The translations under genes and the position numbers were made by a program. Under the pieces are notes generated by a model. That model was not told the origin of the DNA and did no database searches. It worked only from the letters and a program-made list of their open reading frames with translations. A stretch of DNA of 64,000 nt from Ostreococcus lucimarinus (lineage: Eukaryota), in assembly GCA_000092065.1 (NCBI GenBank), contig CP000583.1; one strand, given 5' to 3'. Below are positions 13,679-25,602 of the stretch, in pieces (positions within the stretch are counted from its first letter, which is position 1; every line of letters starts with the position of its first letter).

Positions 13679-15172
13679 TTACGTGGGATTGGAGAAGTTG
13701 AATATGCGCGCCGTGCAGTCGTCGCTCGCGGTGATGACTCGAGCGTAGTCGGGACTCATGGCGAAGTCTAAGATCCCTTTCGTGTGACCGTGCGCCTCTC
13801 GTTGACACGTAGACGTGCGGGCATCCCAGAGTCGCACGATGCCGTCGACGGATGTGCTGTGGGAGTGGAAAATAGATACTGAACGTAAGTCGAAGGAGCG
13901 CGGCGAAGCGAGTAGACGAAATGTCGCCAAATCGACGGCTTGAACGATGGAGTTGAGGTCTCAAAGCTCGGTGTCGCGTCGATGCGAGGCGAGTGATATA
14001 TGCAAGCTATGTCCACCACCGCGCGTTACGTGCAAACGCGCGAGGCCCTTATGTTGCGAAGTCAAACGACCGAAGCGACGCTCGAAGACGTACCTATACA
14101 AACACATGGTGTTCGGAATCCATCGAAGCTGGCTCACCGCACCACCGTGCGAGAGCGTACCTCTGGCTTGACACGAATTCGTGTCCCAAATGATAATTTG
14201 CTTATCCAGCGAGCCGGTGGCGCACACCGGCATGATGTCGCTGAATCCGACGGCTTCGATGGTTTCCGTGTGCGCCACGAGCGGCGCCAGAACTTTCCCA
14301 GTCGTCGTGCTCACCAATCGAGCGGTGTTGTCTTCGCTCCCGGTGATGGTTAATCCCAGCGTCGATGGATGAAACGCGACGCACGTGAGCGGACCGTCGT
14401 GGAACGGATGCCCGCGGAACGCGTGTTCGCACGCTCCCGTTCTCGGTTGCCACACTCGCAACGATCCGTCGTAAGACCCGGTGACGACTTGCTTACCGTC
14501 GGGCGTAAATCCACCGCACGACACGCGCTCACTGTGTCCACTGAACACTTGCATGAGCGCACCGTCGTCGCCGTTCCACATCCACGCCGTGAAGTCTTCG
14601 CTCCCCGCGAGCGTCACGCGTCCTCGCGGATGCCACGCCACCCACTCGATTCCCCCGCCCGGTCCCTCGAGCGCGCGTTCGACCGCGCCCGTCTTCCCAT
14701 CATAAATGCACACCTTTCCATCGAGTCCACCCGTGGCGAGCAAGCCACCGTCGGCGCTGAACGCCGCGCACGACACGCTCTCCCCGTGTCCTCCCAGCTC
14801 TCGCGCCTCCCCCGCGCCTCGTCTCAAATATCCCTTATCGTCCCCCCCGCCGCTCACCACCGTCGCCTCCGCGCCGTCGTTCGACCACGCCACCGCGTAC
14901 ACCGGCGCGTCGTGCGTCGCCGCCACGCATTCCGCGTCGTCCCTCGGCGGCGCGATCGTCGTCGACGCCGCCGCGTCCCGGTCCTCCGTCGTCGTCCCGT
15001 CCCCATCCATCGCCTCGTCCTCCGCCTCGTCCTCGTCGTCGCTCGACATCGGCGCCTCGTCGTCCTCGTCCAGGTCCGCGACCTCCTCGTAATCGTCCGC
15101 CGCGGGATCGATGAAGGCGTCCTCGACGTCGTCGTCGTCGTCCTCCGTCGCCGCCGCCGCCGCGTCGTCCAT
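13679..15172 (-). CDS. AAMP-like (angio-associated migratory cell protein) WD40-repeat protein with acidic N-terminus, 2 exons on minus strand: 14094..15172 and 13679..13856
   Basis: Start chosen at MDDAAAAATEDDDDDVEDAFIDPAADDYEE..., ahead of WD repeats (PVYAVAWSNDGAEATVVSGGGDDKGYL, GHGESVSCAAFSADGGLLATGGLDGKVCIYD, ...). Exon 1 ends ...IPNTMCLY at a GTACGT donor. The ~237-nt intron has acceptor CCCACAG. Exon 2 (S)TSVDGIVRLWDARTSTCQREAHGHTKGILDFAMSPDYARVITASDDCTARIFNF... The upstream Arg-rich part of the ORF-track ORF (to 15628) is rejected. Confidence 0.8.
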
Positions 15173-15364
15173 CGCGCTCGAGCGCCGCGCTCTATCGCCT
15201 CGCGCGCGCGCCGCGCGCTCGACCGCGGGCGACGAAATCGTCGCGCGCGTCGCGTCGACGGCGTCGGTCGCGATCGACGCGCGCGCGTCGTCGAGTGCGG
15301 CGGCGGCGCGACGGATGGTCGACGGACGGTCGACGACGCGCGCGCGCACACGACGACGCGCGCG

Positions 15365-16231
15365 ATGCTGCGCGCGATGCGTCGGCGCGCCGGCGCGCTC
15401 GCGCGAGAGGCGCGCGCGCGCGCGCGCGCGACGACGACGACGACGACGGCGACGGCGACGGCGACGGCGACGACGCGACCGCGAGGCTTGATGACGTTGT
15501 CGACGCGCGAGACGATTTCGTCGCGCGCGGCGCCGTGGACGGCGCTGACGACGACGACGGCGCCGACGACGACGGCGCCGACGACGACGACGCGCCGGGG
15601 CGCGCGAACGATGTTCATTCAGACGCAAACGACGCCGAATCCGATGAGCCTGATGTTTCAGCCCGGGCGCGAGGTGTACGCGGAGGGGTCGAAGAATTTT
15701 TCAAACGCGAGGGAAGCGATGGCGAGCCCGCTGGCGAAGCGGTTGTTCGCGATCGAAGGCGTCACGAATGTCTTCTTCGGGATCGACTTCGTGACGGTGA
15801 CGAAGGGCGAAGACGCGGAGTGGGAGACGGTGAAACCGCAGACGTTTGAGGCGATTACGAACTTTTACGCGAGCGGAGAGACGGTGATGGACGAGGAGAA
15901 ATTGGCGGCGAGCGGGACGGCGATCGCGGAGGACGACGATGAAATCGTGGCGATGATCAAGGAACTCCTCGAGACGAGGATTCGACCGGCGGTGGCGGAA
16001 GACGGGGGAGACATCGTGTTCAAGGCGTTCGATCCCGAGAGCGGGCTCGTGACGGTGCAGTTGCAAGGCTCTTGCGACGGGTGCCCTTCGTCGAGCGTGA
16101 CGCTGAAGAGTGGGATCGAAAATATGCTGATGCACTACGTGCCCGAAGTCAAGGGCGTGGTGCAGGCTGGGCAAGACGACGGCGAGATGGATTTGCTCGA
16201 CTTGGCGGATTTGCATCGAGGGCGAAAGTAG
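15365..16231 (+). CDS. NFU1: NFU1-type iron-sulfur cluster scaffold (NifU-like, mitochondrial type) with N-terminal presequence; the conserved domain starts at 15611, and an alternative start lies at 15491
   Basis: MFIQTQTTPNPMSLMF... (Nfu_N domain) and the C-terminal NifU CxxC motif SCDGCPSSSVTLKSGIENMLMHYVPEV. The upstream in-frame MLRAMRRRAGALAREARARA looks like a mitochondrial presequence. The remainder of the 620-aa track ORF (from 14369) is rejected as antisense of the AAMP-like gene. Confidence 0.85.
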   Translation: MLRAMRRRAGALAREARARARATTTTTTATATATATTRPRGLMTLSTRETISSRAAPWTALTTTTAPTTTAPTTTTRRGARTMFIQTQTTPNPMSLMFQPGREVYAEGSKNFSNAREAMASPLAKRLFAIEGVTNVFFGIDFVTVTKGEDAEWETVKPQTFEAITNFYASGETVMDEEKLAASGTAIAEDDDEIVAMIKELLETRIRPAVAEDGGDIVFKAFDPESGLVTVQLQGSCDGCPSSSVTLKSGIENMLMHYVPEVKGVVQAGQDDGEMDLLDLADLHRGRK

Positions 16232-16371: not shown

Positions 16372-17490
16372 ATGTCGTACGGCGCGACGCCCGGCGCGAC
16401 GATCGATGCCGATTCGTCGTTCGGGCGTCGACGCGAGGACGGCGTGCGCGTGTCGCCGCGCGCGCTGCTCGGCGCGATCGCGGTGGCGTGCGCGGCGGCG
16501 CTCGCGGCGCACGAGGTCGGACGGTCGACGGGCGCGCGGCTCGGATTGAAGGCGGGGCTGGGACTGTGCTCGTGCGAGTGTCGGTGCGACTCGGACGGCG
16601 GCGGCGGCGGCGGCGGCGCGCCGGCGCTGTCCGTCGCGCGAGGCGCCGCGGCGAACATGCCGAAGACGCTGTTGGATGTCGAGGTGACGGATCCGCGGCG
16701 TTGCGGGACGTTGGCGGCGGAGCGTAATTACAGCGCGTGGGTCCACTACGACGAACACGTCGAGGCGGCGGAGAAGCGAAACAGGTGCGCGTTTTACGAC
16801 ATCTTCGGCCCGTTCGCCGGGGACGAGACGGACGAACACCGGGTGACTGGATGTTCGGTCCCGGGCATGACGCCGCTGGGCGGATGCGGAACGGTGCGAG
16901 GCTGGCACAGAACGGCGTCGCAGGCGTACGCCATGGGCATGGGCAACGCGCCGTCGTCTAACGTCTGTCGACAGTTCGCCGCCCAACACGGTTACGAAGC
17001 GTGGCTCTGGCTCTCCCCGGCGCACCCCGAAGCCGCTCGCAGGAACTCGTGCGTCTTCTACAGCGCTTTCCACTCGGCGCACGCGGACGAGCCCGGGGAC
17101 GTCATTCACGGCACCGCGTGCACCAATCCTCACGCCTCCGTCGCCAACGGCTGTCGCAACCACGCGCGACACGCTCAAAACGAAATCGAGGGTTGGGCAC
17201 ACGCGACGCACACCTACGCAGAAGGCTTCGGCAAAGCCAAGGGTCCGGGTGACTGCAAGCGATACGCCAAGCAACACGGATACCCGAGTTTTCTCTTCAT
17301 CAACGAAAAGCACCCGTCCGCGCAGCACCGTTTCAGTTGCGCGTACTACCTCAGCAACGGGGCGGGCGAGGTTGAGCCGGGATGGGGGCCGTACTCTGCG
17401 TCGACGCAAATCGTCAACAGCGGGAACGACGACATTCACATTCTCGGGTGCGCCGACGACTCGAAGACGCCGCTCGAAGGGTGCGCGTGA
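16372..17490 (+). CDS. Novel cysteine-rich membrane/secreted protein with three tandem ~65-80-aa 4-Cys repeats (possibly WSC-like carbohydrate-binding modules)
   Basis: N-terminal hydrophobic anchor ALLGAIAVACAAALAA and a poly-Gly stretch. Three repeats follow the pattern C-x2-(F/Y)A-x-(Q/E)(H/R)(G/N)Y-x-(A/S)(W/F)(L/V)...R-x-(S/R)C-(A/V)(F/Y)Y...GC-x6-8-P-(L/V)-x-GC. Confidence 0.6.
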   Translation: MSYGATPGATIDADSSFGRRREDGVRVSPRALLGAIAVACAAALAAHEVGRSTGARLGLKAGLGLCSCECRCDSDGGGGGGGAPALSVARGAAANMPKTLLDVEVTDPRRCGTLAAERNYSAWVHYDEHVEAAEKRNRCAFYDIFGPFAGDETDEHRVTGCSVPGMTPLGGCGTVRGWHRTASQAYAMGMGNAPSSNVCRQFAAQHGYEAWLWLSPAHPEAARRNSCVFYSAFHSAHADEPGDVIHGTACTNPHASVANGCRNHARHAQNEIEGWAHATHTYAEGFGKAKGPGDCKRYAKQHGYPSFLFINEKHPSAQHRFSCAYYLSNGAGEVEPGWGPYSASTQIVNSGNDDIHILGCADDSKTPLEGCA

Positions 17491-17690: not shown

Positions 17691-18941
17691 TCATCGTCGA
17701 GCTAACTTGCGTTCGTCGCTATCGATCTTGCCGCCGAGAGCCTCTTCGAGTTCCGAAACGCCCGCCGCATCGGTGTCCGTTCGCCCGCTTAAGAGGCTCG
17801 AGAACCAGTTGTACGTCGACGTTCCGAGTCCGAGTCGACTTTGTAAGCTACATTTCGAGTCAGCCATTTCGTCCGTGAACCGGTCGGAGTCGCAGTGACA
17901 GCTGTGACCTTTCGGTTCGTTGAAGTTCAACACCGACGTCTTCACCGGGCACAACCCAAACGTTTGATCGAGCAACGTCTTGAACTTATTATCTCGCGCG
18001 ACGGCAACGATGGTGAGCTCGATCCCAGAATTCGGTGTGGCGAAAATATCATCCCACGCACCGTGATCGACTCTCAAGTACGCCGTCGGCGTGGCCTTTC
18101 CATCGGCATCCGCGCTCGCGCCCGCGAGATAGACTGAGTACCCGTACTGCGCGACGAGCTTAACTTCCCCCAGTAACGCCTTACGCTGCGCCTTGCTCGT
18201 AATCTCACGTCGCCAAATAATCGTACTGACTTTTCCACTCGCCAAACCTTTCTTGAACCGCGCGAATTGCGAGCGAGAGCGCTTCGCGTCGTTGATCAAA
18301 ACCGTCAGCTTCGCCTTGGGCGACGTCTTCGCGATTTGCTCAAACTCCTCATCGAGCTGTCGACTCACTCGTCGATCGTTCCATAACTTCTCCACTATCG
18401 AATTGTCGTGTCCGAGATCCTTCAGCGTCGCGCTCAACGTCTCCACCGCGCGCTCGTCCACGTACGTCCTCGTCTCGCACTCAAACGCTCCCGCGTTCGC
18501 CATCGCGTTCACCCAAAATCCCATCTTCGTCGCCATCCCCGCGTCCACGCTTCCCCGCCTTCGCATCACTCTCGCATCGTCGCCCTCGCGTCCGGACCCT
18601 GGTTCCGGCAATCCGATCGTCATCACCACGCACGGTCCCGGCGCGTGTCTCGCTCGCACCGTCAACGCCAGCTCCGCCGCGATGAAATCCGCCCGCGCCT
18701 CCCTCGCGCTGTAGTGACACGCCCGGTGCTCGAACCACGATCGCTGCGTCTCTTTCAGCGTTCGCACGCACCGCGCGTCCAGCGCCGGGTCGTACGCGCC
18801 GCCCAGCGATACCTGCGCGAGTCCGAGCGCGAGCGCGACGACGGTGGCGAGCGCGACGCACGCGGCGCACGCGCGGCCGCGCTTGACGCCCTGGCGCAGC
18901 GCGCGCGAGCGCCGACGAAGTTGCTCTTTGCTCAGCCCCAT
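17691..18941 (-). CDS. Hypothetical type II (signal-anchor) membrane protein, 416 aa, lumenal domain of unknown function
   Basis: ATG ORF with N-terminal basic stretch then TM (ACAACVALATVVALALGLAQVSL) followed by a large hydrophilic domain (...EKLWNDRRVSRQLDEEFEQIAKTSPKAKLTVLINDAKRSRSQFARFKKG...). Confidence 0.5.
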   Translation of the reverse strand: MGLSKEQLRRRSRALRQGVKRGRACAACVALATVVALALGLAQVSLGGAYDPALDARCVRTLKETQRSWFEHRACHYSAREARADFIAAELALTVRARHAPGPCVVMTIGLPEPGSGREGDDARVMRRRGSVDAGMATKMGFWVNAMANAGAFECETRTYVDERAVETLSATLKDLGHDNSIVEKLWNDRRVSRQLDEEFEQIAKTSPKAKLTVLINDAKRSRSQFARFKKGLASGKVSTIIWRREITSKAQRKALLGEVKLVAQYGYSVYLAGASADADGKATPTAYLRVDHGAWDDIFATPNSGIELTIVAVARDNKFKTLLDQTFGLCPVKTSVLNFNEPKGHSCHCDSDRFTDEMADSKCSLQSRLGLGTSTYNWFSSLLSGRTDTDAAGVSELEEALGGKIDSDERKLARR

Positions 18942-19059: not shown

Positions 19060-19743
19060 CTAGACCGGACGGAGCGCCTCGCCCCTGAGCGCGGCCTCGC
19101 GCGCGCGACGAGCGATGCGAGGCGTTAAAAGCTCGCCGAACTCGCACCAAAACTTGCCCTGCTCGCGCTGCGCGAGACGCACGGCGTCGCGCTTGGCCCA
19201 ACCGGCGCGCCGACGATGGCGCCGCGAGCGACCGCGCACGGGCAAATCGCCGAGTTTCAACCCGCCCAGGGGATCGCCGGCGTCGACGGCGTCGATCACG
19301 CGATCCTCGATCGTCTGTCGGTGGCCGATCTGCTGCAAACCGACGAGCTCGGTGAGGGTGTTCAGATCGAAGACGCCCGGATATCGTCTGCCGCCGACGC
19401 GCCACGTCGGCGTCGTCGCGCACCGCGCGCACGTCAAGCACCTCGACGCGTTCCCGCAATCGACGTAGTGCTGTCGCCATCGCGTCGGGAGGAGCTCGGC
19501 GAGGAGTTGTTTTTGTTGCTTGCACTTCTCGCACCACGGCGCGCCGAGGAGCGCGACGTCGAGTCGACGCAGCGCCTGGCCGAGCGCGCGGATTTTGTCC
19601 CCATCGGTGTCATCGTTCGCGCGCGTCGCGCTCTGCGCCTCCGCGGCGCGACGCGCGCGAGCGGAGAGCTCGACGTCGTCCTTGCGCGCGTGTCGAGGCT
19701 CGCACGCGCGCGTGCGCGCGCGGAGATTGATCGCGAGCGCCAT
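19060..19743 (-). CDS. Thioredoxin-fold protein with WCxxC motif (WCEKC)
   Basis: VALLGAPWCEKCKQQKQLLAELL...YVDCGN...TPTW...YPGVFDLNTLTELVGL resembles a thioredoxin-like fold. N-terminal Arg-rich stretch. Confidence 0.45.
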   Translation of the reverse strand: MALAINLRARTRACEPRHARKDDVELSARARRAAEAQSATRANDDTDGDKIRALGQALRRLDVALLGAPWCEKCKQQKQLLAELLPTRWRQHYVDCGNASRCLTCARCATTPTWRVGGRRYPGVFDLNTLTELVGLQQIGHRQTIEDRVIDAVDAGDPLGGLKLGDLPVRGRSRRHRRRAGWAKRDAVRLAQREQGKFWCEFGELLTPRIARRAREAALRGEALRPV

Positions 19744-19899: not shown

Positions 19900-22800
19900 A
19901 TGACGCGTGGAGAGCGCCGCGCGCGCGGCAACGCTGGGACAACGGCCGGACGACGCGCGCGCGGTGCTCGAGCGCTGTGCGCGATCGCGCTCGCGCGCGC
20001 GCTCGTGGGTGACGTTTCGCGCTACTTTGTGCTCGCGCAGACGGTCAGCACGGGAGCGCCGCTGGTCGGGGCGACGAACGGCGCCGCGCAGGCGGTGCTG
20101 GACTTCGCGAGCGCGCCGGGCGGACGGTGCTCGCCGAACGACGACTCGAACACGATGGCGTGCGAAAAGCTCGAACCGCCGTCGACGAAGAATTACGCGT
20201 CGTTTGACTTTTATGTGAACGACGTCAACGGCGCGCGGTGCGATAAGTGTGGGAGGGAGTGTAGTTTGGACGGCGCCGCGTGGGCGTATTGCGGCGCGAC
20301 GCCGGTGTGGTACTTTGGGTTGTCGTACGGGCAACACCAGTTCAAGGTGCGAGGACTCGGTGGAGATAACGTCGCGGGGACGGCCGTGGTGTATGACTGG
20401 ATGAATGAAGAACCGTTGAAGGTGGAGTGGGATTCGGGATATTCCACGCCTTCGTCGTACTTGAATTCAAACGCTGTGTTGACGTTTCATTTGGCGTCGT
20501 CGCGGCCGAGCTCAAATTACGTGCAGTTTGAATACAGTACGACGAATGATTACATCAAGACGTTCACGCGATTATCGATTGGGGTGACATCGGTGAGCGT
20601 GACACCGAGTTATGGGTCGAATAGGTTTACATTCAGGGCGATATCCATAGAGTCGTTCACGGGGAAATCGCTCACCGAGTCTTCGGTGAACGAGATTGAG
20701 CTTTTGTACGTCGCCGATAACGTCAACCCCTCGTTGGCCTTCGTGAGTGGACTCGCAAACGGAGGAACGACGCAGAAAGGATCGATGGAGTACGTAATTA
20801 GCGCTTTAGACGTGGACCCAACGAATGGATACGAATCTGGATTGGCAACGCTCGACGTGCAGCTCTTTCGGCTGGATAACGGGGCAACGTCGCCGTCGCC
20901 GTTGCGCGCATGGACGACGTATCACACATTTAGTGGCGCTCCTGTGGACAAAAACGTAACGGTGACTTTAACAAACATCGCGTCGCTGGCGGACACGACG
21001 TATAAATTAGAGATTAGAGCTACAGATCTTGCAGGAAACGTCGCAACAACGATTGGTAGGACTTTCGTCGTGCAGTTGTCAAGCTTGGTGAACGTTCCCG
21101 ATTCGTCTGGTCTGAGTGCGTCGACCACAGAGCGGCTACAGACGACGTCTGGGGCGATTAAACTAGCTTCACAGCCATCAGATGGATCTCTCGTACCCGT
21201 TGCGTACGAGGTGAGCGCAATCGTCGGCGGCACTCTTGTGCTTGAATCAGCGACGAGCGTGGCTTTGGCCAACAACACGCTTGTCACGGCATCAGATGCG
21301 CTCAATGGTTTCAGGTTCACGCCTACGGCTGGATTTTATACGAACGATCAGTACGCGAGTACGTTTGGTTTTGATTTGAAGCCTTCCACGAGCACGTCAG
21401 ACTTGTCTCAAGTCGTCAATTTACCTGCGCATTCCACCATCACCGTCACAGCGACGAATGATCCACCCGTAGTGAGTGTCACAGCGCACTACAAGTTGAC
21501 CCCAATACACGTGTCGGACGGTGCGAACATTGGAACCGTGGTACGTGATATTTTAGATGCTAACGTCATCGATTATGATTACCTCTCGTCGAACAACACT
21601 GTTCCTTACGGCTTCGCCGTTGTGGGCGCCGACGAGACGCGAGGCGCGTGGCAGTTTTCAACGAATGGTGGTTCTTCATGGACAAATTTCAACACTGCTG
21701 GTGCGTTGAGTACGACGAATGCATTAATGCTCACGGCGACGACAAACGACCGAGTGCGATTTGTACCCACGGCAACGACTCTCCAGGATCAGTTCATCGC
21801 TTCCTTTGCGTTTAAAGGTTGGGATGGCACGACGAGCGAAGCGACAGGAGCCACTGGCATTGACATCACAACGAGTGGACATACGGCAACGACTGGATCG
21901 ATTAGCGTTTCAACCGTCACTGCCACCATTCTTGTGCGTGGTCTTTCTCATAGTTTATTCGAGCAAGCTGCACAAACGACAACAGCGAGCTCACGACAAG
22001 CGTACAGCGCAGCACTTTACAGTTGCCCGCCGACGCACCGGCGAAGTATTCGTATCCCCGTCGCTGCAACGTCGAGCACGTCCTCTTCTTGTGCGGGCAC
22101 CACGTCAACCGCTCAGCCTAAGATAAAGGCTTCGTCAGCTCTTACGGTCTCACCTCCTTGGACGATCGAGGCTTGGGTGCGTCGCGATGCTTGGCTCAGC
22201 GAACAGACGTTATTTCAGAATCCAAGCGATTTGAGTGCAGTCATGCTCGAAATGAGCGACGCAAGCGGGAAGGTTGGTGTCGTGCCGCCGTCGGGTGTGA
22301 GCGGTGGTACATTTAACTATGCAGCTCCACTGGGGACTTGGGTGCACTTGGCCTTCGTCATGTACGAGAACAATCATCCTTCCGCTTACAGCGCGCCTGG
22401 GGCGAATTTGCGCCTCATCGTAAACGGCGTCTTTCACAGCGAAATCACAAACGTCGGTTTCGCCATGCCACATGGCATCATCGGTGGTTCTGGTCTCGCT
22501 GGATTCTCGATCGATGAGGTGCGATTTTGGTCCATCGCCCGATCGACGGAAGATATTTACACCAACATGAATCGTTTTGTCGCGGGCACGGAGACTGGGC
22601 TCGTATCGTACGTTCCCTTTGACGCGGGATGCGGTAGCACCGTGGTCGACAGAGACAGCGGAAGCTCGACCACTTGGACGCTCGTATCTCACGAGTGGAT
22701 TGATGCGCGCATATTTTCCTGCGCTTCGTTGACCTCCGTATCGCCTGCAAGCGTGAATTTGTACAACACTTCAAATTTGCAGCTCACTGGCGAGCGCTTT

Positions 22801-25602
22801 ACTCGTCCGGCTTTGGGTTGGGGATCGAGCTCTGTCGCATCATTTGACGGCACCAACGCGGTTTGTATTTTCGGTTCATCGACTATTGGAAATATGACTA
22901 CAGTGGCCACAGTTGTAAACGACGGTTTGGTACAGTGTGCGCCTCCGGACTCGACGAATGGCATCGCTGTGGTAACGCCAGTGTTTTGCGACTATTCTCT
23001 TGGTTGTTGCACGAGTGAGACCCCTATTGATTATTATCTCGCAGCGAGTCGACCTTACGACTCGAATTACGTTTCTTACGGTGTGAACACACCACCGATG
23101 TATGATCAACCGGCGCTCAGGTACAGTGTTGGAGAAATCACATCAGTGATGCCTTCGACGATAGACTGGGCTCTCGGCGCCGTTGTGACTCTGGCTGGTT
23201 ATGGATTTTCGACGCCGATGGATACGAATTTTGGTGCTCAACCCCCAAAGTGCGTGTTTCGAGCTCGACTTCCGTCGAAGACTGCTTGGGCTACCTTTCA
23301 CGTTACAGATGCGGCCGTGCTGTCGGATAGTGTGGCCAAGTGTGAGTATCCTGGTTCTGCTGTGACTGCTTCGCTTGAAGCGCGATATAGCGTCGAGGTA
23401 GCGTTGGCATACTTCTACGACCACGTGGATTCGATCCATCTCATATCAAACGGATGGATCACAGTAGTAGTTTCAAGTTATACTTTGTACACCGGACTCG
23501 ACGAGCCGCTCACGGAGATTTCGGACTTAGGAGGCAGTGTGGTTTCGATCACCGCGATATACACCAAATCTGACACGGCGGGGGAATTTGCAGATCACAC
23601 CTCTGGACGGGTATCGTCTCTGGACGTGGCGTGTGCTTTCGGTACAGTGCACCCCGTTTCAGCTCGTCACAACGCATCTGAGACCTTTGAGTGCGTCGCT
23701 CCAGCGGCACCGAGGGCTGTGCCCACAGATGTCCCGCTTTCAGTGACTTTGTTTGCGTCGTCGATGTTCACTTCGTATTCGCGTCTCGAGCTTCTCACTC
23801 AGACCGGAGACATTTCTTACGTCGCGCAACCGGTGGTTTCAGCAATATGGCCTCTGAAAATCTTTTCAGTGGCGACGAATGCGCCTAATTTTCAGGTCAT
23901 TGGGTCCAACTTCCCGAGTTCGAGCACGACGTGTCAGCTCAACAACAAGTATTACTCGGCGACGTGGTCGAGTGCGAGTCGAGTGCAATGCAACACCGTC
24001 ACGAGCGGTGGAGCATCACCTGGTTTCCAAGCAGTTTACGTGGGTAACAATTTACTCAAGATGGACGAAGCTTTCTCTCCAGGTGACGCTCACGTGATGA
24101 TACGAGATGATGTTTACGTGGGCGCCGTCGTATCCGGCGGAGCGGCAGGACCTCTGTACGGAGGGTGGGCGCTCACCGTCTCGGGATCCGGATTCCTTCC
24201 TGGGGACGGGTGTTCGTTACACGCCTATCCAGGAGAGCTCAATGGAAGTGGTGATGATCCCACAGCTGGAGAGTTTGTAAGCAGCGCTTTGATGAGGTGT
24301 CTCGCTCCGAAAGTGGAAGAAAATTCGGTGAATTGGGATTTAACGTCAGACGGCGGCGGTTGGGCGACGCACCTGGTCGCGCGTCTCGCCATTCAGACGT
24401 TTTCTGATGCACTCGATAATAATGCAGTGGTCATGAAAGTAGTAGACGGTATCAACAACGTTAGTGCGGTGGCAAATTTGTATGCTACCATGACGTCTGC
24501 TGAGCTCATATCTACCGATCCCGTGTACTTGAATGTCGATGGCGGCACCTCCGTCGCCATCATTGCAAAGAATGGAACTGCTTCTCTTTTGAGTACTTCG
24601 TGTCGATTTGGGACTATCCAAGTCTTGGCAGATTGGGGTTGGTCGAACACTTCTTCGACGACGCGAATGCGATGCGTTTCACCCTCTTTCGGCGCGTACA
24701 GCACAAACGGAATTCGACTATCAGTGTCTCAGGGCGACCCTGGACATCACGGTGAAACAGTCGTTTCGGCCGCCTTGACAATGATGAGGCCGTTAGATGA
24801 TCTAACTTCAACGCTCAACAATGGTTTGAACATCGTTGGGCCATTCTCGTCGGTGCCAAGCGCACAGTTGGCGTTGTACGAGTGCTACATAAAGGGCGAC
24901 CGGAACTTCGTGACGGGGTCGTTCGAGTTGGCATCCTCACAGAACGAGGGCAGTTGTTCCCTGAGACAGGCTTCCATGAATCTCGTATCACGTTCAGATT
25001 TCGCGTTTTACACTACCGCGATTGCGATAAGGGGTGGTGAAGATGTTGCGTTACCCATCACGCTTCAATACATCGCGCCGCCGATTGTGTCGTCCGTCAC
25101 GGTGAGCGCCCGCCCGCCGCCTTACGGTTATCGACCGGCGTTTGCTACCAGTAATTGCACGACACTCGAAGATGCACCATTGCTGACGTACGATAACGCT
25201 CACGGTGTGTACGAAGGTCGACCCCAGACACCGTACGAAGTGGAAAAATTTGCCTTGTCCTCTCTGCCAATTTTCGGCGGCGCTTGGTGGCACGTCTCGA
25301 ACGCCATCGGCACGCCCGTGAATGTTTACGGTCGATTCTTTCGATCGCCACAAGACGGAGGAGACATTCGTATCTTATTTCAGCACGCCGGTGAGATCGC
25401 TTCGACCTCTGCGCACTTCGTTTCGTCAGCACTCGTGCGCGTAGAGGTGCCCATCGACGTCGACGCCGAGCACGAAACCGAGGTTCGCGCCTCCGTGGAC
25501 GACGGCGCATCTTGGTCCAGCGAGCGCTTCACGTTCATGATTCCAGAATTAGATTACGTCAACCGTGACTTGCAAACGGTCGAGCAAGGATGTGCGGCGT
25601 AA
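19900..25602 (+). CDS. Giant (1900 aa) single-exon secreted/cell-surface multidomain protein containing a LamG/concanavalin-A-like (pentraxin-like) domain and multiple beta-sandwich (IPT/Ig-like) repeats
   Basis: 5.7 kb uninterrupted ORF. Signal-like N-terminus (ALCAIALARALVG). LamG-like block ...TLFQNPSDLSAVMLEMSDASGKVGVVPP...WVHLAFVMYENNHPSAYSAPGANLRLIVNGVFHSEITNV...GFSIDEVRFWSIARSTEDIY. Many Thr/Ser/Val-rich beta-strand segments. GC visibly lower than neighbouring genes. Confidence 0.75.
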   Translation: MTRGERRARGNAGTTAGRRARGARALCAIALARALVGDVSRYFVLAQTVSTGAPLVGATNGAAQAVLDFASAPGGRCSPNDDSNTMACEKLEPPSTKNYASFDFYVNDVNGARCDKCGRECSLDGAAWAYCGATPVWYFGLSYGQHQFKVRGLGGDNVAGTAVVYDWMNEEPLKVEWDSGYSTPSSYLNSNAVLTFHLASSRPSSNYVQFEYSTTNDYIKTFTRLSIGVTSVSVTPSYGSNRFTFRAISIESFTGKSLTESSVNEIELLYVADNVNPSLAFVSGLANGGTTQKGSMEYVISALDVDPTNGYESGLATLDVQLFRLDNGATSPSPLRAWTTYHTFSGAPVDKNVTVTLTNIASLADTTYKLEIRATDLAGNVATTIGRTFVVQLSSLVNVPDSSGLSASTTERLQTTSGAIKLASQPSDGSLVPVAYEVSAIVGGTLVLESATSVALANNTLVTASDALNGFRFTPTAGFYTNDQYASTFGFDLKPSTSTSDLSQVVNLPAHSTITVTATNDPPVVSVTAHYKLTPIHVSDGANIGTVVRDILDANVIDYDYLSSNNTVPYGFAVVGADETRGAWQFSTNGGSSWTNFNTAGALSTTNALMLTATTNDRVRFVPTATTLQDQFIASFAFKGWDGTTSEATGATGIDITTSGHTATTGSISVSTVTATILVRGLSHSLFEQAAQTTTASSRQAYSAALYSCPPTHRRSIRIPVAATSSTSSSCAGTTSTAQPKIKASSALTVSPPWTIEAWVRRDAWLSEQTLFQNPSDLSAVMLEMSDASGKVGVVPPSGVSGGTFNYAAPLGTWVHLAFVMYENNHPSAYSAPGANLRLIVNGVFHSEITNVGFAMPHGIIGGSGLAGFSIDEVRFWSIARSTEDIYTNMNRFVAGTETGLVSYVPFDAGCGSTVVDRDSGSSTTWTLVSHEWIDARIFSCASLTSVSPASVNLYNTSNLQLTGERFTRPALGWGSSSVASFDGTNAVCIFGSSTIGNMTTVATVVNDGLVQCAPPDSTNGIAVVTPVFCDYSLGCCTSETPIDYYLAASRPYDSNYVSYGVNTPPMYDQPALRYSVGEITSVMPSTIDWALGAVVTLAGYGFSTPMDTNFGAQPPKCVFRARLPSKTAWATFHVTDAAVLSDSVAKCEYPGSAVTASLEARYSVEVALAYFYDHVDSIHLISNGWITVVVSSYTLYTGLDEPLTEISDLGGSVVSITAIYTKSDTAGEFADHTSGRVSSLDVACAFGTVHPVSARHNASETFECVAPAAPRAVPTDVPLSVTLFASSMFTSYSRLELLTQTGDISYVAQPVVSAIWPLKIFSVATNAPNFQVIGSNFPSSSTTCQLNNKYYSATWSSASRVQCNTVTSGGASPGFQAVYVGNNLLKMDEAFSPGDAHVMIRDDVYVGAVVSGGAAGPLYGGWALTVSGSGFLPGDGCSLHAYPGELNGSGDDPTAGEFVSSALMRCLAPKVEENSVNWDLTSDGGGWATHLVARLAIQTFSDALDNNAVVMKVVDGINNVSAVANLYATMTSAELISTDPVYLNVDGGTSVAIIAKNGTASLLSTSCRFGTIQVLADWGWSNTSSTTRMRCVSPSFGAYSTNGIRLSVSQGDPGHHGETVVSAALTMMRPLDDLTSTLNNGLNIVGPFSSVPSAQLALYECYIKGDRNFVTGSFELASSQNEGSCSLRQASMNLVSRSDFAFYTTAIAIRGGEDVALPITLQYIAPPIVSSVTVSARPPPYGYRPAFATSNCTTLEDAPLLTYDNAHGVYEGRPQTPYEVEKFALSSLPIFGGAWWHVSNAIGTPVNVYGRFFRSPQDGGDIRILFQHAGEIASTSAHFVSSALVRVEVPIDVDAEHETEVRASVDDGASWSSERFTFMIPELDYVNRDLQTVEQGCAA

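Follow-up and report, generated by a model that had tools for sequence, protein, structure and literature searches.

The window analyzed here is a 64,000-nucleotide stretch of Ostreococcus lucimarinus DNA (assembly GCA_000092065.1, contig CP000583.1). It carries a gene for a 372-amino acid (aa) protein in which an N-terminal hydrophobic segment and a poly-Gly linker are followed by three tandem Cys-rich repeats. We show that this three-repeat open reading frame (ORF) is a real conserved gene under purifying selection, and that its repeats belong to a new sequence family of known fold that curated libraries have not catalogued. The predicted structure of one repeat is that of a PAN/apple-fold domain, with WSC as a more distant structural cousin. 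We consider it rather likely that the product is a single-pass type II surface glycoprotein with three PAN-fold ligand-binding modules, the ligand being probably a glycan.

The three-repeat gene

The ORF is complete (Table 1), and its M-S-Y-G-A start is kept in the alignment of homologues, which argues for the 372-aa form as the genuine one. Gene calls from some metagenomic strains are 42 aa longer (P0001, 414 aa, start MYHIITF...), where an indel immediately before the ATG brings another upstream frame in phase. The identical protein was called on 190 contigs (NCBI, JGI, ENA, Logan and Tara), chromosome-sized ones (0.96 Mb) included, and is listed in 391 index blocks; marine metagenomes contain the gene in abundance. 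On every contig examined it has an NFU1-type gene on one side and two unannotated genes on the other. Its setting in the window (GC ∼61%) has WD40/DCAF and NFU1 neighbours and short intergenic spacers, which, together with that abundance, suits an Ostreococcus-like member of the Mamiellales.

Homologues were found at 80–89% and 41–44% identity (89, 84, 44 and 41%), with the Cys framework kept. When the gene was compared with the 84% homologue (P0003), the ratio of nonsynonymous to synonymous substitutions (dN/dS) in the + frame was 0.089/0.299, or ∼0.3, and the substitutions per site at the three codon positions were 0.103, 0.087 and 0.179, a third-position bias. A partial transcript in MMETSP codes for a sequence closely related to repeat 2. 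The low dN/dS, the conserved homologues and the transcript of a relative together establish the ORF as a gene. The alternative, an artefactual ORF in GC-rich DNA, could draw on a 410-aa ORF that spans the whole gene in antisense, since long ORFs arise easily at such GC. It is refuted for practical purposes by the selection in the + frame, by a Cys framework conserved over homologues of 41–89% identity, by the transcript, by a confidently predicted fold and by a large family. Because selection acts on the + frame, it is the antisense ORF that is the GC-rich artefact.

The original prediction had described the ORF, its N-terminal anchor, the poly-Gly linker and three tandem four-Cys modules, all of which were recovered from the translation and by BLASTP and hidden Markov model (HMM) comparisons; a C-S-C-E-C-x-C cluster (aa 66–72) was absent from that description. 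In pairwise BLASTP the repeats matched one another with E=2e-10 (repeats 1 and 2), 9e-17 (repeats 2 and 3) and 6e-8 (repeats 1 and 3), and an HMM built from 72 family sequences matched the ORF three times (E 2e-18, 6e-24 and 8e-20). A six-frame translation of the window gave no match to this HMM beyond these three repeats. Each unit begins with a conserved 'GW...' extension, and once this is counted the units are 81, 89 and 110 aa long, rather than the ∼65–80 aa proposed before. The conserved block quoted in the original prediction fits repeats 2 and 3 well and repeat 1 more poorly. Repeat 1 carries the one conserved sequon (N119-Y-S, 16726–16734), the alignment places an insertion of ∼20 aa after the second Cys of repeat 3, and the protein ends one residue past the last Cys of that repeat.

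Among the window protein, P0004 and P0047, corresponding repeats are 44–48% (repeat 1), 43–65% (repeat 2) and 51–55% (repeat 3) identical, and unlike repeats share 22–33% identity. Like repeats are thus closest across species; therefore the triplication predates these species and has been maintained since. In a second group (P0049, P0051 and P0053) the N-terminal anchor and a CxC motif are likewise present and long linkers set the three modules apart, with no one-to-one correspondence of its repeats to those of the window protein. No synteny was found between the P0049 locus and the neighbours of the gene in the window, and hence the orthology of P0049 is unproven.

Fold and disulfide framework of the module

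The structure of one repeat, whose prediction had been suggested as a check on the first description, was modeled with AlphaFold2. Repeat 2, with the 72-sequence alignment, gave a model of high confidence (predicted local distance difference test [pLDDT] 92.9, predicted template modeling score [pTM] 0.83), with the elements H8–14, E15–20, H24–33, E38–42, E54–58 and E74–78. One helix packs on an antiparallel β-sheet, as in PAN/apple domains. The highest structural scores of the model were those with the apple domains of plasma prekallikrein and factor XI (9.8 and 9.4), followed by the Sarcocystis lectin SML-2 (8.0), the apple domains of Toxoplasma MIC4 (7.6 and 7.5), the plasminogen PAN domain (7.5), the N domain of hepatocyte growth factor (7.4), a PAN-containing fungal copper oxidase (7.2), AMA1 (6.8), yeast Wsc1 (6.6), Kremen WSC (6.1) and MANEC (5.3). 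In an independent Foldseek search of the PDB, nine prekallikrein/factor XI apple entries came out on top (probability 0.96–1.00, TM-score 0.53–0.57). Because the structural ranking and Foldseek agree, the modeled module is assigned to the PAN/apple fold.

Sequence searches gave no counterpart to this likeness. Neither the protein nor the 12 repeats of our repeat profile had a Pfam-A match beyond noise even at E≤10, the noise being Peptidase_M78 (0.02–0.05), DUF2828 and DUF2478; these candidates were discarded. At the same threshold neither matched PAN_1 (PF00024), PAN_2, PAN_3 or PAN_4 (PF14295), and there was no match to the WSC HMM (PF01822). PDB sequences, searched with both the protein and the repeat profile, yielded nothing significant (best match, the GIP receptor, E 0.24). 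When the family profile was aligned by hhalign with an ad hoc alignment of canonical PAN segments drawn from family members, which was small and heterogeneous, the probability was 0.2%. PAN matches in members of the family fall outside the module (e.g., P0058, aa 231–278). The earlier statements that no known domain matches confidently, and that the module is novel with respect to any strong profile match to a well-characterized domain, thus hold at the sequence level; only the fold is held in common.

The Cys framework differs from that of known PAN and apple domains. By alignment with apple domains, Cys1, where the long helix begins, and Cys2, on the central strand, presumably occupy the position of the PAN core disulfide. 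By this analogy, the likely pairing would be Cys1–Cys2 and Cys3–Cys4, the latter closing a short C-terminal loop. The helix carries C-x3-A in place of the C-x3-C of PAN domains, with Ala31 in 92% of 238 domains. Since there are four Cys per module and the helix has C-x3-A, only one of the two PAN core disulfides is possible; neither the two-disulfide PAN core nor the six-Cys apple framework (C1–C6, C2–C5 and C3–C4) was found.

The apple domains of factor XI and plasma prekallikrein (PDB 7qox, 6o1g and 6i44) share 9–12% identity with the module, but they have six Cys and C-x3-C. The module lacks their N-to-C clasp disulfide and has an extra C-terminal G-C...G-C loop, and the three-repeat protein, an algal membrane protein rather than a vertebrate plasma protein, has no protease domain. 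Identity to the apicomplexan lectins SML-2 (2yil) and MIC4 apple (2ll4 and 4a5v) is 7–11%, with another Cys framework; there is no evidence in the module for the galactose binding of these lectins. Canonical PAN_1/PAN_4 domains, including those of giant-virus PAN/apple proteins (Marseillevirus, Pandoravirus and CeV-01B), have the superfold in common with the module. They are also frequent in giant-virus proteomes (ranks 9–30 in the viral structure library) and even co-occur with the module in some proteins, such as P0058, but annotated viral PAN/apple proteins match the model far more weakly (E 0.06–0.7) than do unannotated family members (3e-6 to 8e-4).

The module family and giant viruses

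The profile of 12 repeats was run exhaustively against 1.84 billion cluster representatives (50% identity clusters), and matched 166 proteins (E≤1e-3), of which 48 passed E≤1e-10 and 8 passed E≤1e-30. A word-indexed homologue search, whose k-mer prefilter is too strict here, found four clusters with the protein and two with the 72-sequence profile, and cluster look-ups returned no label other than 'hypothetical protein'. Family members are 77–1513 aa long and carry one to four copies of the module (up to five matched stretches); their amino-acid composition runs from very AT-type to GC-type. The module was originally taken to be lineage-specific, a view that at least 166 clusters of very different composition, giant-virus contigs included, do not bear out. 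A paper on chlorophyte receptor kinases and one on OtV hypervariable regions make no mention of the module.

The family consensus reads ...(V-x-G-W)...T-P-E-x-C-R-x2-A...Y-x-A-W-G-x-R-N-x2-H-P...R-N-T-C-F-x-Y...G-N-x2-D-x2-H-x-T-G-C-x2-P-G...G-C. All four Cys line up in 189 of the 238 domains, and the remainder are mostly alignment-edge cases. As in the family, the window repeats have C27, C55, C77 and C88 in register, together with Ala31 and D70, and His at or beside positions 46 and 73. Many viral and protist members have a conserved N-Q-T sequon directly before Cys1 (alignment positions 21–23), which is not present in the algal repeats.

In 108 family members scanned with Pfam, no match covers the module, but the scans reveal the domains with which it occurs: F5/8 type C (discoidin) in six members, Ricin-B lectin in five, TSP1 in four, Tectonin, canonical PAN_1/PAN_4 and B-lectin in three each, and PA14, collagen and T4 tail-fibre in one each. 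On inspection of the sequences, a recurrent design is an N-terminal transmembrane (TM) segment, a long stalk that is coiled-coil, collagen or Pro/Thr-rich, and then, at its far end or close to it, one to three modules. Surface adhesins and lectin receptors are built in this way; therefore the module is placed outside the cytoplasm, in an N-in/C-out orientation with the module distal. The proposal that the modules are extracellular binding units is thus plausible in view of both the domain company and the architecture of the members.

The family also extends to giant viruses. When a viral structure library was searched, the best matches were uncharacterized giant-virus proteins (E 2.7e-6 to 7.8e-4, TMq 0.70–0.82, 18–29% identity), among them A0A7S6NYG7 of Bathycoccus sp. 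RCC716 virus 2 (E 9.6e-5); the top accessions (C7U0.., G4Y.., E5E.. and G9E..) may be prasinovirus entries. Alignments of subfamilies retrieved nine IMG/VR loci, including a 148-kb uncultivated virus genome (UViG) and two GVMAG contigs, whereas searches of IMG/VR with the algal protein and with P0123 found no close relatives. At one locus (L005) a 546-aa protein consists of a TM anchor, the module, a Pro-rich stalk and a TM segment. At another (L022, 6277–8531; IMG/VR UViG_3300021960_007723) a gene for a TM anchor, coiled coil and module adjoins a discoidin (F5/8 type C) gene. The same contig also carries a Pox_A22 resolvase and a cluster of GDP-mannose-dehydratase, DegT aminotransferase and epimerase genes, and looks like a possible viral neighbourhood for glycan synthesis and glycan binding.

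Membrane topology, ligand and meaning

The most hydrophobic 19-mer of the protein (aa 31–49, ALLGAIAVACAAALAAHEV, mean Kyte–Doolittle 1.89) covers its single hydrophobic segment, the position of which is kept in all homologues. The 30-aa tail before it, with an RRRED basic patch, would be cytoplasmic, and the C-terminal part outside, because the latter is Cys-rich and needs an oxidizing compartment. In the juxtamembrane cluster C66-S-C68-E-C70-R-C72, the last three Cys are invariant and C66 nearly so in the five-sequence alignment, and P0049 and P0051 carry CxC motifs at the matching place. By analogy with the stalk cysteines of type II receptors, the cluster may be well placed for inter-chain disulfides. 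A (GGC)7 microsatellite encodes the poly-Gly tract that follows; since this tract varies from homologue to homologue both in length and in composition (GGGEG; GGDSNGGGSGERAP), it is a hypervariable linker.

These features fit a protein held by a single-pass, N-in/C-out anchor at its N-terminus in the surface of a Mamiellales-type picoalga. Outward from the membrane there would be the CxCxCxC cluster, a short Gly hinge and three anciently diverged four-Cys modules of ∼85 aa, which would act as extracellular ligand-binding units held close to the membrane. The ligand would most likely be a glycan and less likely a protein; a glycan is favoured because the module keeps company with lectin domains and because apicomplexan apple lectins are among the closest structures. 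Tandem modules would provide avidity, as might disulfide-linked oligomers formed through the Cys cluster. Since the 30-aa tail has no signaling domain, we would expect a role in adhesion or recognition, and not that of an enzyme-coupled receptor.

Several points weigh against this reading. Proteins are as common as glycans among the ligands of PAN/apple domains, and the apple domain of factor XI is protein-binding. Any common ancestry with PAN domains may be argued only from the predicted fold, because no sequence-level homology to PAN or WSC was detected. The W-G-[YH]-R-N motif found across the family (G40, R42 and N43) is missing from the algal repeats, which have W[LV][WH][LY] (W-L-W-L or W-V-H-Y) or F-L-F-I-N at that strand, so they may bind another ligand than the viral and protist members, or none. 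The full-length AlphaFold2 model (five sequences, pLDDT 49.8) is of low confidence and too weak for inter-module packing or for the Cys cluster, although it repeats the H-E-E-E pattern three times, repeat 1 included. Finally, the hydrophobic segment, rich in Ala and with A-L-A-A at its end, might be a cleaved signal peptide.

This last point leads to an unlikely alternative, namely that the segment is a signal peptide cut after A-L-A and that the protein is a secreted soluble lectin or matrix protein, released or peripheral. The short, Ala-rich h-region followed by an A-x-A-like site (cleavage between AALA and AH) would suit it, as would the lack of a second TM segment or a glycosylphosphatidylinositol-like tail. 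However, signal peptides seldom have a charged n-region as long as 30 aa, the full-length model, at its low confidence, predicts a helix over aa 29–56, and in many family members a clear TM anchor at the N-terminus is followed by a stalk; a conserved Cys cluster right after the segment would also be typical of membrane-proximal stalks. Far less probable is a WSC-type cell-wall integrity or stress sensor, or a wall-binding module, which the original prediction had raised from a faint likeness. WSC domains (PF01822; Wsc1 7pz2 and Kremen1 5fws) have eight Cys where the module has four, score lower than apple domains, and gave no HMM match. Wsc1-type sensors have an N-terminal WSC head, a Ser/Thr-rich stalk, a C-terminal TM segment and a cytoplasmic signaling tail, whereas the window protein has the opposite topology, with its anchor at aa 31–47 and a Gly-rich linker of ∼45 aa. 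Ostreococcus-type cells, moreover, have no cell wall, which makes binding to a wall improbable. With every WSC-specific test failed and the presumed organism wall-less, we disfavour the WSC sensor.

A host–virus interface, in which the module was shared, possibly by horizontal transfer, and the algal protein is a receptor, a decoy or a binder of self-glycans mimicked by viruses, appears rather unlikely. It would account for the giant-virus proteins, A0A7S6NYG7 included, at the top of the viral structure library, for the members on IMG/VR contigs (the 148-kb UViG and the two GVMAGs), for the resolvase, sugar-nucleotide and discoidin genes beside the module gene at L022, and for the TM-stalk-head build of viral members. 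Against it, nothing closely matching the algal protein is present in IMG/VR, the algal repeats are ∼25–43% identical to any non-orthologous family member and differ at the most conserved strand motif, and a common extracellular fold in host and virus is no proof of interaction. We retain the surface glycoprotein with three PAN-fold modules as the preferred reading.

Table 1. Coordinates of the three-repeat gene, its parts and nearby ORFs in the window.
Feature	Position	Strand	Basis or remark
Three-repeat protein, complete coding sequence, 372 aa + stop	16372..17490	+	ATG start; ORF list
N-terminal tail, aa 1–30, RRRED basic patch	16372..16461	+	Sequence; low pLDDT, no domain
Hydrophobic segment, aa 31–47, ALLGAIAVACAAALAAH	16462..16512	+	Putative signal-anchor, possibly cleaved signal peptide
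Juxtamembrane Cys cluster, C66–C72	16567..16587	+	Five-sequence alignment
(GGC)7 microsatellite, Gly76–Gly82, flexible hinge	16597..16617	+	Sequence
Repeat 1, aa 92–172, four-Cys, PAN-like	16645..16887	+	Family HMM E=2.4e-18; Cys 111/139/161/172
Repeat 2, aa 173–261, four-Cys, PAN-like	16888..17154	+	Modeled repeat; Cys 199/227/250/261
Repeat 3, aa 262–371, four-Cys, PAN-like	17155..17484	+	HMM E=8.1e-20; Cys 295/323/360/371
Antisense shadow ORF, 410 aa	16342-17574	-	ORF list
Overlapping ORFs in low-complexity DNA	14369-15628	both	
416-aa ORF	17691-18941	-	No Pfam match
227-aa gene	19060-19743	-	No Pfam match; called in metagenomic contigs
1900-aa ORF	19900-25602	+	TIG, Laminin_G_3 (ConA-like), Big_13

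Among the neighbouring loci (Table 1), the 416-aa ORF lies directly downstream in convergent orientation, has an anchor-like hydrophobic segment at its N-terminus and stands beside the gene in all metagenomic contigs examined; it may be another unannotated membrane protein. The domains of the 1900-aa ORF suggest a giant surface or adhesion-type protein, and its GC of 0.535–0.543, against 0.63–0.67 in the flanks, could reflect other codon usage or a foreign origin. On the other side, between a divergent WD40 gene (-) and the NFU1-type gene (+), GC-rich low-complexity DNA holds long overlapping ORFs coding poly-Arg, poly-Thr or poly-Asp. The start of the NFU gene is called at very different positions across contigs, with products of 194–302 aa.

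These results are incremental but useful, and do not overturn current understanding. They show that (i) a domain family of at least 166 clusters has gone undetected by current libraries and is absent from Pfam-A (2025), and its assignment to the PAN/apple fold would give an annotation to hundreds of marine-protist and giant-virus proteins now labelled 'hypothetical'; and (ii) if the proposed pairing is correct, the PAN fold would be stabilized in another way, by one core disulfide and a C-terminal loop disulfide. That the module is an unrecognized lectin-type recognition domain of an arms race between marine algae and giant viruses is doubtful. If true, giant viruses, prasinoviruses included, would display it at the tips of membrane-anchored stalks, whether coiled-coil, collagen or mucin-like, to attach to glycans of the host surface. 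The three-module version of the Mamiellales would then bind the same class of ligand as a self-recognition protein, receptor or decoy, and the gene would offer a direct way into the study of how viruses attach to Ostreococcus and how it resists them. On naked cells of the Ostreococcus type, the few surface proteins are prime candidates for cell–cell and cell–virus recognition. Because its module repeatedly pairs with lectin domains and occurs in viruses of the Mamiellales, the three-repeat protein is a candidate for the recognition of surface glycans.
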